DNA of 64,000 nt from a virus (lineage: Duplodnaviria; Caudoviricetes): positions 15,465-79,464 of the IMG/VR virus record IMGVR_UViG_3300017963_000032, one strand, 5' to 3'. Under the pieces are notes generated by a model, which saw only the letters and a list, made by a program, of their open reading frames with translations, did not search any database and had not been told where the DNA came from. Below are positions 14,676 through 38,948 of the stretch, in pieces. A program made the translations under genes and the position numbers. How positions within the stretch are numbered: position 1 is the first letter of the stretch; the number at the start of each line of letters is the position of its first letter.

Positions 14676-15493
14676 AGGCATTAATAACTGGAGGTTCAGG
14701 ATTTATTGGAAGCCATATTATGAATCTCTTTGATTACGAATTTGAGAATATAGACATTCAAGTCGACAGGGATATTAGGAAAGCAAACATCAAAGGAAGT
14801 CCAAAAATATGTTTCCATCTGGCAAGCAAGTGTATAGTCAGGGATTGCATAACAACTCCTAACATAGCCTTCAGGAATAATGTTGAAGGAACATTCAATA
14901 TAATGGAAGGGTTGAGAAGAAAGGATGTAAAAGAATTAATATTGTTCAGTTCAAGCAGGGTTCTTTCTAAAGAGAAAAATACCTATACTGCATCTAAGAC
15001 TTATGCTGAAGGATTGGCTGAAGCTTACTGGGAATGTTATGGAATCAAGTACAAGATTATCAGGCCAAGCACAGTTTACGGAGAGCTCGATAAGACAGAT
15101 AGGATAATCCCTAGGTTCATTCGTGCTGCATTCAACGGCAGGCCTTTAGTAATATATGGTGATGACAAAAAGACATTGGACTTGACTTACATTAGAGACT
15201 TCATGAATGCATTTAAATTAGTGATGGACAGCCCGGTGTGGAATACAGATTATAACATTGCTAATGGAAAAGAAGTAAATGTTTTTGAAATAGCAAAGTA
15301 CGTGAAAGATATTACAGGGAGCAAATCAGAAATTGTATTCAGAGATTCTGAAGTTGCACAACCTCAAAGAGTCAAAGTTGATATTAACAAGATAAGAATG
15401 CTTGGTTACAGGCCACAGATGGATTGGAAAAAGGGGGTAGCTAAAACAATAGCTTGGTTGAAAAATGATGAAGAGCTTACTGGAAGAAATTAA
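14672..15493 (+). CDS. NAD-dependent sugar epimerase/dehydratase
   Basis: ITGGSGFIG, YTASK and RPSTVYG; GTG start. Confidence 0.9.
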   Translation: MKALITGGSGFIGSHIMNLFDYEFENIDIQVDRDIRKANIKGSPKICFHLASKCIVRDCITTPNIAFRNNVEGTFNIMEGLRRKDVKELILFSSSRVLSKEKNTYTASKTYAEGLAEAYWECYGIKYKIIRPSTVYGELDKTDRIIPRFIRAAFNGRPLVIYGDDKKTLDLTYIRDFMNAFKLVMDSPVWNTDYNIANGKEVNVFEIAKYVKDITGSKSEIVFRDSEVAQPQRVKVDINKIRMLGYRPQMDWKKGVAKTIAWLKNDEELTGRN

Positions 15494-28145: not shown

Positions 28146-28207
28146 AAAAACGAAAGATTTATATAGTAGTTATACTTACCTATACGTAAGACGTTAAACG
28201 GAGGCGA
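28146..28207 (+). promoter_or_regulatory. promoter with CTTAC-N6-GTAAG operator (copy 2) and RBS
   Basis: AAAAACGAAAGATTTATATA, CTTAC(28175)-CTATAC-GTAAG(28190), GGAGGCGA at 28200. Confidence 0.7.
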
Positions 28208-28214
28208 AACCAAT

Positions 28215-28937
28215 ATGAAAGTACCAAAATTCCCAAGCATAAAAGGTGTTGAATTGTACCTAGTAGGCGGATGCGTGAGAGATTCCCTAATGGGTCAGAC
28301 TCCAAAAGATTTGGACTATGTTATGATAACAGACAAGTCTTTCGAAGAAGTCGTAAAGCAAATATCAGAGACACCTAACTGCAAAGTATTCCAAGCTAAG
28401 GCAGAGTTCTTAACAATCAGATGCAAGATACAAGACCAGATAGTAGACTTAGTCATGCCAAGAACTGAAGAAGGATACTCAGACCATAGAAGGCCAGACG
28501 AAGTTAAAGGAACAGATTCTCTATTTGAAGATTCCAAGAGAAGAGACTTCACTATAAATTCAATGTACATGGACAAAGAAGGAACCATACTTGATTATCA
28601 TAAAGGAGTGGTTGACCTGAAGAATAAAGTCATCAAGTGCGTAGGCAACCCAAGGGAAAGATTCCAAGAAGATTACCTAAGAATACTCAGAGCTGTCAGG
28701 TTCTCTTGCAGGTTTGGATTCAAAATAGATAAGAGCACACAAAATCATATGATTAAATTATCAGAGAGATTAACTGATGTTGAACAGAACAGAGTCAGGG
28801 AAGAACTAAACAAATCATTGAAGGCAAATCCTAAGTGGACTATGAAATACATCGAAGCATTGAACTTATATAAAACATTATCAGAATTAGGATTACATTT
28901 TGAGCTTAGCTCTAAGGGGGGAGAAAATGATAAGTAA
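28215..28937 (+). CDS. cca: class II tRNA nucleotidyltransferase (CCA-adding enzyme), short form
   Basis: LVGGCVRD...DLD, RRDFTINSM and FQEDYLRILRAVRF (EDxxR). Confidence 0.88.
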   Translation: MKVPKFPSIKGVELYLVGGCVRDSLMGQTPKDLDYVMITDKSFEEVVKQISETPNCKVFQAKAEFLTIRCKIQDQIVDLVMPRTEEGYSDHRRPDEVKGTDSLFEDSKRRDFTINSMYMDKEGTILDYHKGVVDLKNKVIKCVGNPRERFQEDYLRILRAVRFSCRFGFKIDKSTQNHMIKLSERLTDVEQNRVREELNKSLKANPKWTMKYIEALNLYKTLSELGLHFELSSKGGENDK

Positions 28938-29765: not shown

Positions 29766-29780
29766 CCGAAAGCTTTATAT
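29766..29780 (+). promoter_or_regulatory. BRE/TATA promoter for the Y-RNA/TROVE unit
   Basis: CCGAAAGCTTTATAT about 25 nt upstream of element 1. Confidence 0.65.
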
Positions 29781-29805
29781 TTATGTTGTCATTTTCATGT
29801 TGTTC

Positions 29806-29895
29806 GGGTGGCGTAGAATAGGGTTACTTCGCTTGAAACGAAACCAAAATAGGCTGTAAGAGCCTATTGTCTATACCCTGTTTGATTGTACCCCC
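29806..29895 (+). ncRNA. Y-RNA-like element 1
   Basis: GGTGGCGTAG-AATA-GGGTTACTTCG 5' strand pairs with ACCCTGTT...CCCCC. Internal hairpins TTCG-CTTGAAA-CGAA and AATAGGCT/AGCCTATT. Confidence 0.7.
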
Positions 29896-29910
29896 ACAAC
29901 TCATGTTCAT

Positions 29911-30035
29911 GGTGGCGTAGTCGAGAGTTACTTCGACTCGTAATCGAGAGGTCGCAGGTTCGAATCCTGTCATGTGCTTCGGCACGTGTAGCTCAGTTTG
30001 GTAGAGCGCTAACGTACTCTCGACGACTGTTCCCC
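29911..30035 (+). ncRNA. YrlA-like Y RNA, element 2 (permuted tRNA mimic)
   Basis: Closing stem GTCGAGAG/CTCTCGAC. Anticodon-like arm 29932-29948, T arm 29954-29970 (TTCGAAT), 7-bp acceptor stem closed by UUCG 29971-29988, D arm 29991-30007. Confidence 0.85.
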
Positions 30036-30072
30036 TTCATAATCATAAGCACTAAGGTACCAGATTGACAGT

Positions 30073-30138
30073 ATGCGGTGACGTAAACAAGGGATACTTC
30101 GTTCCTAAGAAAAGACCCTCGTTGCTTGTTTCCCGCAT
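30073..30138 (+). ncRNA. Y-RNA-like element 3 (minimal)
   Basis: GGTGACGTAA-ACAA-GGGATACTTCG; termini ATGCGG/CCGCAT pair. Confidence 0.6.
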
Positions 30139-30155
30139 TCATTATCATAGTCATT

Positions 30156-30270
30156 GGGTGGCGTAGTAAAGAGTTACTTCGGTAAAAAACAAACTTCAAA
30201 ATTTGTTCAACTGGTTCAAATCCAGAATCCCTTCGGGGTTTCAAAACGTACTCTTTACGTCCGTTCCCCC
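30156..30270 (+). ncRNA. Y-RNA-like element 4 (T arm plus capped acceptor, no D arm)
   Basis: GGTGGCGTAG-TAAA-GAGTTACTTCG pairs with GTACTCTTTAC. CTGG-TTCAAAT-CCAG T arm and a cUUCGg-capped stem. Confidence 0.72.
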
Positions 30271-30307
30271 GGACAATTTAATAAATAAGAACATGAGGTG
30301 TTTGAAC

Positions 30308-31855
30308 ATGAGTAAATACAACAAGCCTACTAGAGGCAAAGATAAGACTGTAAACCACGAAGGAGATGTGGCTTACAAATTGGATAGCAAAACAGAACTG
30401 TATTCTACAGTCTGCACATCAATGTTGCAGAACAAGTTCTACGAGAAAGAAGATGAAACTCTGAATAGAATCAGAACTCTCATCAAGACTACAGACCCAG
30501 AGTTTGTGGCTAAGCTAGCAGTGTATGCAAGAGAGAAGATGTACCTTAGAAGTATACCTTTAGTCCTTGCAGTTGAGCTGGCAAAGGTCCACAACGAGGA
30601 CAGCATTCTTGGAAGAACTGTTAGCAGAATAGTCCAAAGGGCTGACGAGATAACAGAGATTCTAGCTTACTACAAAGAAGCTAACAAGGATAACTGGGAG
30701 ACTGAAAAGAATTCTGGAAAGACAAAGCATCTTGGAAGATTATCAAAGCAGATAGCTAAAGGTCTGAACTTTTCTTTTAACAAGTTCGACGAGTACCAGT
30801 TTGCTAAGTACAACAGAAAGGGCCAAGTTACTTTGAAGGATGCACTATTCCTAGTTCACCCAAAGGCAAAGAATAAAGAGCAGCAAAAACTGTTTGATAA
30901 GATTGTCAATGGAGAACTAAAGACACCTGAAACTTGGGAAGTTAAGATGAGTGAAGGTGGAAAGGAAGGAGCTGACAAGAAAGAAGTCTGGGAGAAAATG
31001 ATTAGCTCAGGCAAGATGGGTTACATGGCAATGCTGAGAAACCTAAGAAACTTCTTGGAAGCTGACGTGAGCCAGAAGCACATGGCTGATGTAGCGCAGA
31101 CTCTTGCAGACCCTGAGAAAGTTAGAAAGAGCAAGCAGTTACCATTCAGATTCTTGAGCGCTTACAAAGAGCTGAAAGGAAACAAGAGCTCTAAGGCTAC
31201 AATGATTTTGAACGCTCTGGAAGAAGGAGTGATTACAAGCATTGAGAACTTGAAGGGCTATGATTATAACACAACTGTTTGCGTAGCTTGTGATGTTTCA
31301 GGAAGTATGCAGCATTCAATCAGTGACAGAAGCAAGGTCGAACTTTACGACATTGGATTGCTACTTGGTATGCTATTGCAGTCAAGATGCAAGAGTGTAA
31401 TCACTGGTATATTCGGAGACACTTGGAAGATTAAAGCACTTCCTCAAAAGAGCGTCTTGCAGAATGTGATGGACTTGCATAACATCGAAGGAGAAGTTGG
31501 TTACTCAACTAACGGGTACAAAGTAATCCAAGACTTAATCACTAGAAAGGAGAAAGTGGATAAGATTATGATATTCACTGACTGTCAGATGTGGAACAGT
31601 TACTCTGGAAGTAGAGGAAGCTTTGCTACTTGTTGGTCTGAATACAAGAAGATTCATCCAGAAGCAAAACTCTACTTGTTTGATTTGTCAGGTTACGGAA
31701 ACACTCCTGTATCTGTTAAAGGAGATGGAGTTTACTTGATTGCAGGATGGAGCGAGAAAGTCTTTGATATGCTAGCTGCAATAGATAAGGGCAGTAATGC
31801 AGTGAAGGAGATTGAAAGCATCGACTTGTTCAAGAAACCAAGCAAGAAGAAATAG
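30308..31855 (+). CDS. rsr: Ro60/TROVE-domain RNA-binding protein with vWA domain
   Basis: TVNHEGDVAY, EFVAKLAVYARE..YLR, FDEYQFAKY, ETWE, MGYMAMLRNLRN, SKQLPFRF, CDVSGSM (MIDAS), FTDCQ. GAGGTG RBS before ATG 30308. Confidence 0.95.
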   Translation: MSKYNKPTRGKDKTVNHEGDVAYKLDSKTELYSTVCTSMLQNKFYEKEDETLNRIRTLIKTTDPEFVAKLAVYAREKMYLRSIPLVLAVELAKVHNEDSILGRTVSRIVQRADEITEILAYYKEANKDNWETEKNSGKTKHLGRLSKQIAKGLNFSFNKFDEYQFAKYNRKGQVTLKDALFLVHPKAKNKEQQKLFDKIVNGELKTPETWEVKMSEGGKEGADKKEVWEKMISSGKMGYMAMLRNLRNFLEADVSQKHMADVAQTLADPEKVRKSKQLPFRFLSAYKELKGNKSSKATMILNALEEGVITSIENLKGYDYNTTVCVACDVSGSMQHSISDRSKVELYDIGLLLGMLLQSRCKSVITGIFGDTWKIKALPQKSVLQNVMDLHNIEGEVGYSTNGYKVIQDLITRKEKVDKIMIFTDCQMWNSYSGSRGSFATCWSEYKKIHPEAKLYLFDLSGYGNTPVSVKGDGVYLIAGWSEKVFDMLAAIDKGSNAVKEIESIDLFKKPSKKK

Positions 31856-31868
31856 AAAGCTTTAAATA
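31855..31868 (+). promoter_or_regulatory. BRE/TATA promoter for tRNA array 1
   Basis: GAAAGCTTTAAATA, near-identical to the 29766 promoter. Confidence 0.55.
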
Positions 31869-32056
31869 TTTCTTTATTATTCTTTTTTTGTTTTATTTGA
31901 AACTAGGTGATTAAAGCAATATGTTATACAACACGACAACCGGAATGTGTACATCAGACTTACTTAATAGTCTGGCGTCTCATTGATTCGGGCCTGTCGT
32001 TGTTAAACTTTTTCTGCGCTTTGTTGTTTGATGACGACAAGGCAAAGCTATATCAT

Positions 32057-38837: not shown

Positions 38838-38948
38838 GGTGCTGTGGCGCAACTGGTGAGCGCATCCGGCTGATAAGGAGCGTGCAGAGCTTATATGCAC
38901 AGTTGCGAAGAGTCTGGAAGGCTAAGGGTTCAAGTCCCTTCAGCACCA
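38838..38948 (+). tRNA. tRNA-Ile(GAT) with anticodon-loop intron (about 38876-38912)
   Basis: TCCGG-CTGATA...CTGGA; relaxed BHB with tandem G.A pairs. Confidence 0.8.

Follow-up and report, generated by a model that had tools for sequence, protein, structure and literature searches.

The window analysed here comprises 64,000 nucleotides (positions 15,465 to 79,464) of the IMG/VR virus record IMGVR_UViG_3300017963_000032 (Duplodnaviria; Caudoviricetes), a complete genome of 79,464 bp that bears direct terminal repeats. Directly upstream of a gene for a Ro60 orthologue, and on the same strand, the window holds four tandem units which we take, with good though not full confidence, to be small non-coding Y RNAs of the YrlA/YrlB type, partners of the virus's own Ro60. 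The units belong to an RNA family built on a common end-paired stem, the handle, whose structure is conserved and which is linked to genes of the TROVE family, to which Ro60 belongs. From the sequence we further infer that Ro60 binds these RNAs, that they are co-transcribed with its mRNA and then processed, and that the variable interiors of the units, their cargos, have partners of their own.

The array and its handle

An initial annotation of the window had placed four copies of the motif GGTGRCGTAR-N4-GRGWTACTTCG between a TATA promoter and the TROVE open reading frame (ORF), and had given them four differing cargos: two hairpins, a permuted tRNA mimic, a minimal loop, and a T arm with a capped acceptor. 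An exact scan of the window returns the same four matches and no others, at 29807, 29911, 30077 and 30157, all on the plus strand, and in 100 dinucleotide shuffles of the window the 25-nt motif is never matched, even at three mismatches. A looser pattern run over the whole 79,464-bp genome finds these four sites only, and so does R1, a covariance model of the handle that is described below and that scores the next best place in the window at 12.5 bits; R1 recovered units 2 and 4 although neither was in its seed. The array does lie between a B recognition element (BRE)/TATA-like motif, a predicted promoter, and an ORF with a TROVE domain and a putative vWA domain. The units stand 36–503 nt upstream of this ORF on the plus strand, within the 4 kb and on the same strand as expected of Y RNA genes, with gaps of 11, 36 and 17 nt between successive units and 35 nt from unit 4 to the ATG. 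The features of the locus are as follows.

29768–29782, plus strand: promoter-like BRE/TATA motif GAAAGCTTTATATTT, about 25–30 nt upstream of the first G of unit 1
29805–29897, plus strand: Y-RNA-like unit 1, handle with two hairpins, one a 4-bp UUCG/CGAA stem with loop CUUGAAA and the other of 8 bp; R1 67.5 bits; the minimum-energy fold shows the handle and both hairpins, z −3.2
29909–30038, plus strand: Y-RNA-like unit 2, YrlA-like, handle with tRNA mimic; R1 50.2 bits
30075–30137, plus strand: Y-RNA-like unit 3, handle closed by a loop of about 20 nt, as in its minimum-energy fold; R1 64.1 bits
30155–30272, plus strand: Y-RNA-like unit 4, handle, hairpin, T arm and UUCG-capped 6-bp stem, as in its minimum-energy fold; R1 51.0 bits
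30295–30300, plus strand: ribosome-binding-like site GAGGUG, read from the sequence, 7 nt before the ATG
30308–31855, plus strand: Ro60 orthologue of 515 amino acids, TROVE (PF05731, E 1.8e-38, 133 bits) and a putative vWA domain
31855–31900, plus strand: putative next promoter-like motif (31855–31869) and T-rich run (about 31884–31900)

Minimum-energy folds of the single units reproduce the handle together with the cargos listed, so that the four designs named in the annotation are all seen. The T arm of unit 4 reads CUGG/UUCAAAU/CCAG; this unit has no D arm, and its design is shared by an element of a related locus, L009 (2811–2909).

The 5′ end of a unit consists of GG(G)-U-GR-CGUAR, eight free bases ending in GRGW, and UAC-UUCG, while the 3′ end supplies an octamer complementary to those bases, three bulged nucleotides, YUGUW and a run of C. 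Helix 1 of the handle pairs GG[U]GR with YCCC, leaving the U bulged, and continues as a nearly invariant CGUAG opposite YUGUU, a region that includes G·U and U·G pairs. Helix 2, preceded by the 3-nt bulge on the 3′ strand, has 8 bp that are free in sequence yet always complementary, and leads into WUAC-UUCG. In the window the octamer formed by N4 and GRGW pairs at 29817–24 with 29875–82 in unit 1, at 29921–28 with 30016–23 in unit 2, at 30087–94 with 30116–23 in unit 3, where there are mismatches, and at 30167–74 with 30250–57 in unit 4. The whole handle comprises 17 pairs with a bulged U and a 3-nt bulge, so the ends of each unit are paired in a long bulged stem like those of Y RNAs. A reading of the handle as a bulge-helix-bulge splice site was rejected, since two 3-nt bulges are here separated by 8 bp rather than 4.

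The handle is a conserved structure supported by strong covariation. Alignment A1, made with MAFFT, brings together ten short units of the window and of four viral contigs, and a 17-pair structure was written for it by hand. Standard pairs occupy 92.9% of the cells of this alignment, against 47–56% when the 3′ partners are slid, changes on both sides occur in 12 of the 17 pairs, and none of 500 shuffles reaches any of five measures. R1 was built from A1, and in the alignment fitted to it (87 matches from 26 sources, 86 of them distinct) 92.5% of cells are paired and 14 of the 17 pairs show compensatory changes, with a covariation score for the 86-unit set that is reached by none of 500 shuffles. 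Because the larger alignment was fitted to R1, the ten-unit test is the more independent of the two. Helix 2 carries compensatory changes at all eight of its pairs in relatives, which bears out the earlier claim that the N4 positions covary with each 3′ strand. In helix 1, the change of G5 to A5 in unit 3 (GACGUAA) is matched by a change of C to U on the 3′ strand, a compensatory substitution at pair 8/92 of A1.

The spacers that follow the C run at the 3′ end of the units (29896–29910, 30036–30074 and 30134–30155, and likewise in the related locus L008) contain many CAU/UCAU repeats, as in UCAUAAUCAU and CAUUCAUUAUCAUAGUCAU, and may represent a processing or tail signal.

Unit 2 and its permuted relatives

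Read 5′ to 3′ on the plus strand, unit 2 comprises the 5′ handle strand, UAC, a 5-bp arm with loop CUCGUAA (29932–48), AGGUC, a T arm (29954–70), a 7-bp stem capped by UUCG (29971–88), UA, a D arm (29991–30007), a single G and the 3′ handle strand. This is the order of domains found in YrlA, in which YUAY is followed by a stem-loop, T arm, sealed acceptor and D arm, the YUAY being represented in unit 2 by UUAC, and YrlA is the best Rfam family for the unit (43.8 bits, E 2e-8, 651 nt searched). Tertiary contacts would be possible between G15 and C48 and between G18G19 and the UUC of the T loop. Against the Rfam tRNA model (RF00005), unit 2 scores 22.6 bits, below the threshold of 29, and covers model positions 7–64 only, its acceptor being sealed. 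The tRNA-Thr(CGT) that ARAGORN reports at 29905–29978 was rejected as an artefact pieced together from three parts of unit 2, namely its 5′ handle strand, anticodon-like arm and T arm; left uncorrected, it would enter an annotation as a spurious 21st tRNA.

The arm that precedes the T arm was compared across 51 distinct units of the family, where it has a 5-bp stem and a 7-nt loop with CU at positions 32–33 in 35 units, AA or GA at positions 37–38 in 41, and a middle triplet that takes 25 different values. It is trailed by a stretch of 4–5 nt such as AGGUC. Judged by these features, the arm and the stretch after it carry the signature of an anticodon arm and variable loop, which suggests that the handle joins the tRNA mimic at position 26/27 and not in place of the anticodon stem. 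In Salmonella YrlA the handle does replace the anticodon stem (10.1101/312249).

Loci related to the window contain seven further elements with an open, fully complementary 7-bp acceptor stem, in which the order is acceptor, D arm, 3′ handle strand, a loop of 4–6 nt, 5′ handle strand, anticodon-like arm and T arm. By this order they read as tRNA-shaped circular permutations of the unit 2 design. No such element was found in the window.

L009, 2913–3039: permuted element
L002, 3953–4075 and 4089–4214: two permuted elements
L040, 2929–3052, minus strand: permuted element
L075, 1937–2066, minus strand: permuted element
L065, 3781–3907: permuted element, the same as L101, 178–304
L052, 188–316: permuted element

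The Rfam tRNA model spans two of these elements end to end, in one case around an insert of 68 nt, and RNAalifold on four of them returns the acceptor, D, handle and T helices with 11 compensatory pairs. R2, a model built on permuted elements, recovered the other three. R2 also scores ordinary tRNAs and readings that run across neighbouring units, its matches at 35–39 bits being no better than those to ordinary tRNAs, and only matches with a checked acceptor stem were therefore counted. In L040 the permuted element is the first of its array and directly abuts the next unit, an arrangement suggesting that tRNA-type end processing could separate units. The permuted forms are of interest in view of the idea of Sim and Wolin, as relayed in 10.1101/312249, that YrlA arose from dimeric tRNA transcripts.

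Ro60 genes, their linkage to the handle, and the host

Beyond the TROVE match, ORF 30308 matches vWA_Ro60 (PF25045) at 26.9 bits, just under the Pfam cut-off of 27.7, and has the metal-site (MIDAS) motif DxSxS (D329, S331, S333), which aligns with the DVSGS of Ro60 from Thermus phage phiLo. Residues 14–500 align with the phiLo Ro60 structures 9KOP and 9L5Y (E 2e-22). The TTG start at 30203 given by the ORF finder is unlikely, as the reading frame would run through unit 4 and the phiLo alignment begins at residue 14 of the ATG form. The closest match in a characterised virus, and the best hit among deposited virus genomes, is gene 129 of HGTV-1, which infects haloarchaea (34% identity). A quick tree places the Ro60 of the window in a clade of 16 rows, viral and metagenomic (Shimodaira–Hasegawa-like approximate likelihood ratio test support 97), with HGTV-1 nearby; Acidobacteriota-type TROVE proteins branch deeply as a clade apart, and members of the handle family occur with both clades.

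Whether a locus is viral, bacterial or metagenomic, the handle tends to be accompanied by a TROVE gene in the same orientation. An exact-motif scan of viral contigs gave eight loci, seven of them with a TROVE gene beside the motif and an array of two to five units lying before or after the gene, and the same scan gave 24 loci from species genomes and at least 119 from metagenome contigs. The covariance model built from the units, a step proposed in the initial annotation, has matches in 105 loci, where TROVE was found by tblastn in 60 and by profile hidden Markov model, with the N-terminus at the locus edge, in four more; in all but two of the tblastn loci the gene is on the strand of the motif. 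At least 62 of the related loci show the same proximity and orientation of handle and TROVE as the window. The remaining loci are mostly contigs of less than 4 kb with arrays that run to the contig end. Genomes with R1 matches belong to Acidobacteriota, Thermodesulfobacteriota (Desulfobacterota), Bacteroidota and Actinomycetota, besides phage-like contigs, and the largest array, in L094, has seven units. In L008, L009, L002 and L072 the units lie downstream of TROVE, up to about 1.5 kb away, and elsewhere they are unlinked to it. Loci numbered in this way are the DNA retrieved around motif matches, and the lack of TROVE in L057, L090 and L130 refers to the retrieved DNA only. In L090 (622–4216) units bracket an RNA ligase gene and a radical-SAM gene, and the retrieved DNA holds no TROVE gene. 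One genome with a TROVE-less array was searched whole and carries TROVE on another contig, together with a second array. At gathering thresholds, Rfam finds nothing in 14 TROVE-less genome loci.

About 22 exact-motif matches in genomes and metagenomes, with neither TROVE nor an R1 match, were discarded as false, being coding sequence. Most encode the NAGGVTVSYFEW protein motif of glutamate-dehydrogenase-type genes, including the sole archaeal match, L023; such coincidences occur in L014, L017, L022, L023, L028, L033–L036 and others, and make about 15–20% of the matches in the exact-motif scans false. In a further locus, L003 (6131–8318, minus strand), and equally in L004 and L062, TROVE matches in two pieces, residues 1–168 and 171–507, about 670 nt apart, which points to an insertion in this Ro60 gene, be it an intron, an intein or a homing-endonuclease gene.

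The host of the virus is probably an archaeon. The window encodes PCNA, a family that among 14 control genomes matches only the four archaea, and several of its tRNA genes carry short insertions, that of tRNA-Ile(GAU) (38838–38948) amounting to about 38 nt after position 37. Position 37 is the canonical site of archaeal tRNA introns. Together with the BRE/TATA-like motif and HGTV-1 as the best relative of Ro60, PCNA and the tRNA insertions are the grounds for considering this an archaeal virus. In five related viral records, mostly fragments, PCNA was not found, and these records give nothing firm on their hosts.

Two archaeal settings hold weaker candidates. In HGTV-1 (NC_021328; L157, 3845–3933), a Y-like candidate at 15.9 bits with GGUGCGA, a 9-bp helix and AUACUUCA lies immediately ahead of the TROVE gene, in the gap that separates gene 130 from gene 129. 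R1 finds nothing in the whole HGTV-1 genome under default filters, and with filters off it gives a single weak match, in the right gap. In L161 (2079–3131, minus strand), from a Bathyarchaeia metagenome-assembled genome, a TROVE gene 35% identical to that of the window is preceded by weak handle-like units (24.5 to 11 bits), and 2079–2210 is a clear YrlA-like unit of the form UUAC-UUCGA-loop-UCGAG-CGGUC-T arm. The locus may come from an archaeal cell that has Ro60 and Y RNAs, or the contig may be misbinned or viral.

Proposed function, rival explanations and known systems

The motif GAAAGMTTTAWATAT recurs intergenically on the plus strand at 28152, 29768, 31855, 32817 and 40344. In the general form GAAAG(A/C)TTTAWATAT it precedes the CCA/HD operon, the Y-RNA array, the tRNA cluster and two further units, and it is probably the BRE/TATA promoter of the virus. 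No comparable promoter motif or T-run was found between the units, or from there up to the next motif at 31855, and the region 31855–31900 probably ends the transcription unit of the array and Ro60. Co-transcription of the array with Ro60, followed by cutting, is probably the simplest reading, and Salmonella Y RNAs are indeed cut out of the rsr operon transcript (PMC4201824). Genes for a class II CCA-adding enzyme (28215–28937) and an HD_4 hydrolase lie just upstream of the array and tRNA genes just downstream, in a block that comprises the CCA-adding enzyme, the HD hydrolase and 20 tRNA genes.

We propose that a single transcript, which probably arises from the motif at 29768 with a start at about the first G of unit 1 and includes the Ro60 mRNA, would be cut into the separate RNAs. 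By analogy with known Y RNAs the handle would likely dock on the outer face of the Ro60 ring, leaving the variable interior to act as an effector module. Unit 2 would display a sealed tRNA look-alike and unit 4 a T arm with a sealed acceptor, both of which could attract proteins that recognise tRNA, and units 1 and 3 would mainly occupy or gate Ro60. The most likely role of such particles during infection would be to survey, repair or degrade structured RNAs, especially tRNA. The constant handle with interchangeable cargos that the initial annotation envisaged draws support from the comparison of loci, across which the handle stays constant while the cargos vary.

Several observations weigh against Y RNAs as the identity of the units. 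The YrlA score of unit 2 does not reach the gathering score of 69 bits of RF02553, so the likeness to YrlA sought by the annotation stands as a best match below the threshold of that family. At gathering thresholds Rfam finds only tRNAs in the window, and YrlA neither there nor in 15 related loci. The predominant motif of the handle has U where the published Ro60-contact motif has A. In four long loci, L057, L090, L128 and L130, there are handle RNAs but the several kb around them hold no TROVE gene, the neighbouring genes encoding a radical-SAM or ATP-grasp protein or an RNA ligase, and in L113 (31–3520) handle units flank genes for an RtcB ligase and a BCS1-like AAA ATPase. The annotation had named occurrence of the motif independently of TROVE genes as evidence against its reading; a few long loci are of this kind, and TROVE is present in at least 64 of the 105. 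Finally, to our knowledge PNPase is the only well-established bacterial effector of Y RNAs, and it is absent from archaea.

The loci without TROVE might be taken to mean that some other protein, for instance RtcB or an RNA ligase, is the main reader of the handle instead of Ro60, and that linkage to TROVE reflects a shared RNA-repair neighbourhood. The flanking of RtcB in L113 fits this idea, as does the position of units beside RNA ligase and radical-SAM genes in L090 and L130, with no TROVE gene in the 13–14 kb retrieved. We judge it quite unlikely, however: TROVE is by far the commonest neighbour and lies on the same strand, Ro60 in complexes that have been solved or probed contacts a motif which the conserved 5′ strand matches (PMC4201824), and no RtcB or RNA-ligase gene was seen adjoining the array of the window.

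A very unlikely alternative is that the units act in cis, Ro60 binding handles in its own 5′ untranslated region and thereby regulating translation or stability of the mRNA from which the units are never released. The layout of the window would suit such a leader, with all four units between the sole promoter-like motif and the start codon, spacers of 11–36 nt, and no internal promoter or terminator among the units. The relatives do not, since their units may lie downstream of TROVE or apart from it, and the excision of Y RNAs from the rsr transcript in Salmonella offers a precedent for release; elaborate tRNA-like cargos would also have no obvious use in a leader. It is barely credible that the units lack any function of their own and are tRNA genes in decay or rearranged, or else processing signals of tRNA-like form, for although ARAGORN calls a tRNA across unit 2, units 2 and 4 have T arms and the tRNA cluster adjoins, units 1 and 3 keep the handle with no tRNA parts at all, conservation of the handle, with compensatory changes, extends across bacteria and viruses, and the acceptor-like stems are sealed by UUCG.

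The identification of the units as Y RNAs of the viral Ro60 can be carried further, to tRNA decoys or sensors tethered to Ro60 by a handle at 26/27, handled by tRNA-processing enzymes and targeted by the tRNA-cutting nucleases of defence systems. We regard this extension as doubtful. If it were true, Ro60 particles would serve the virus, and bacteria too, as a means of absorbing or reporting attack on tRNA, and the two permutations would be surviving intermediates in the origin of YrlA from tRNA genes. Independently of this, the locus supplies four concrete candidates for the RNA partners of an archaeal-virus Ro60, and R1 reaches loci, about 100 in bacteria and viruses, that escape the public YrlA model. 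The proteins recruited by each cargo, the archaeal substitute for PNPase and the tRNA-like processing of the permuted forms are now open to experiment.

Among known systems are the YrlA-like RNAs that Chen et al. (2014, PMC4201824) reported from 254 bacteria and 22 phages, encoded no more than 4 kb from Ro60 genes and in the same orientation; every species examined had at least two Y RNAs. The same study gives the 5′ motif GNCGAAN0-1G as the likely contact with Ro60, defines the T, sealed-acceptor and D elements, and notes that stem-loop "V", which precedes the T arm, opens with a conserved YUAY (PMC4201824). In the corresponding column of the R1 alignment, GGCGUAG occurs in 46 of 87 units and GGCGAAG, AGCGAAG and GGUGAAG in other units; the window has GGCGUAG in three units and GACGUAA in the fourth, one base from GNCGAAN0-1G. 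In vertebrates the motif contacted by Ro60 is GGUCCGA. Because canonical motifs share a column with those of the window, and WUAC fits YUAY, the array appears to be the same kind of system as the published Y RNAs.

The bacterial Rsr/YrlA/YrlB systems (Salmonella rsr-yrlBA-rtcBA and Mycobacterium smegmatis; PMC4201824; RF02553) share with the window the position within 4 kb of TROVE on the same strand, the end-paired stem with a GNCGA/UA-G motif followed by YUAY, and at least one RNA per locus with T arm, sealed acceptor and D arm beside shorter companions; in Salmonella the Y RNAs are co-transcribed with rsr. In contrast to YrlA, the family of the window mostly has GGCGUAG in place of GNCGAAG, its WUACUUCG block and YUGUUCCCC 3′ strand are far more conserved, and the stem-loop before the T arm resembles an anticodon arm (5 bp, CU-NNN-AA, 5-nt variable loop). 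The window also differs from the bacterial loci in having four units, with up to seven in relatives, and a probably archaeal host.

Thermus phage phiLo (PMC12135203; 9KOP, 9L5Y) likewise encodes a Ro60, by sequence the closest with a solved structure, and has genes for Y-like RNAs, Yrl1 and Yrl2, directly upstream. According to the accessible text of the report (PMC12135203), phiLo Ro60 binds the two RNAs in vitro and the RNAs bind host PNPase, an enzyme that archaea lack. PhiLo differs in being a bacteriophage with two RNAs that carry a CGAA motif, and the same text describes no tRNA-like cargo. Deinococcus radiodurans, with Rsr and Yrn1 (RYPER), resembles the window in having several small RNAs upstream of rsr and a T-arm-like element, and differs in the order of its tRNA-like elements; there the RNA tethers Ro60 to an effector, PNPase.

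Ro60 has also been recognised in elements associated with archaea, namely gene 129 of HGTV-1, the Nidhogg viruses of Asgard archaea (bioRxiv 10.1101/2021.07.29.454249) and Borgs (PMC11208441). The accessible portions of these reports name the Ro60 protein without Y RNA genes, whereas the window provides four defined candidates. The annotation had held such an array to be without precedent in an archaeal virus, and within the literature searched the archaeal setting and the RNA partners are indeed new, while the architecture itself is widespread in bacteria and phage-like contigs. Against the background of a Ro60/Y-RNA arrangement that was already known, the novelty lies in the probably archaeal host, the GGCGUAG…WUACUUCG signature, the complete anticodon-like arm and the permuted relatives.

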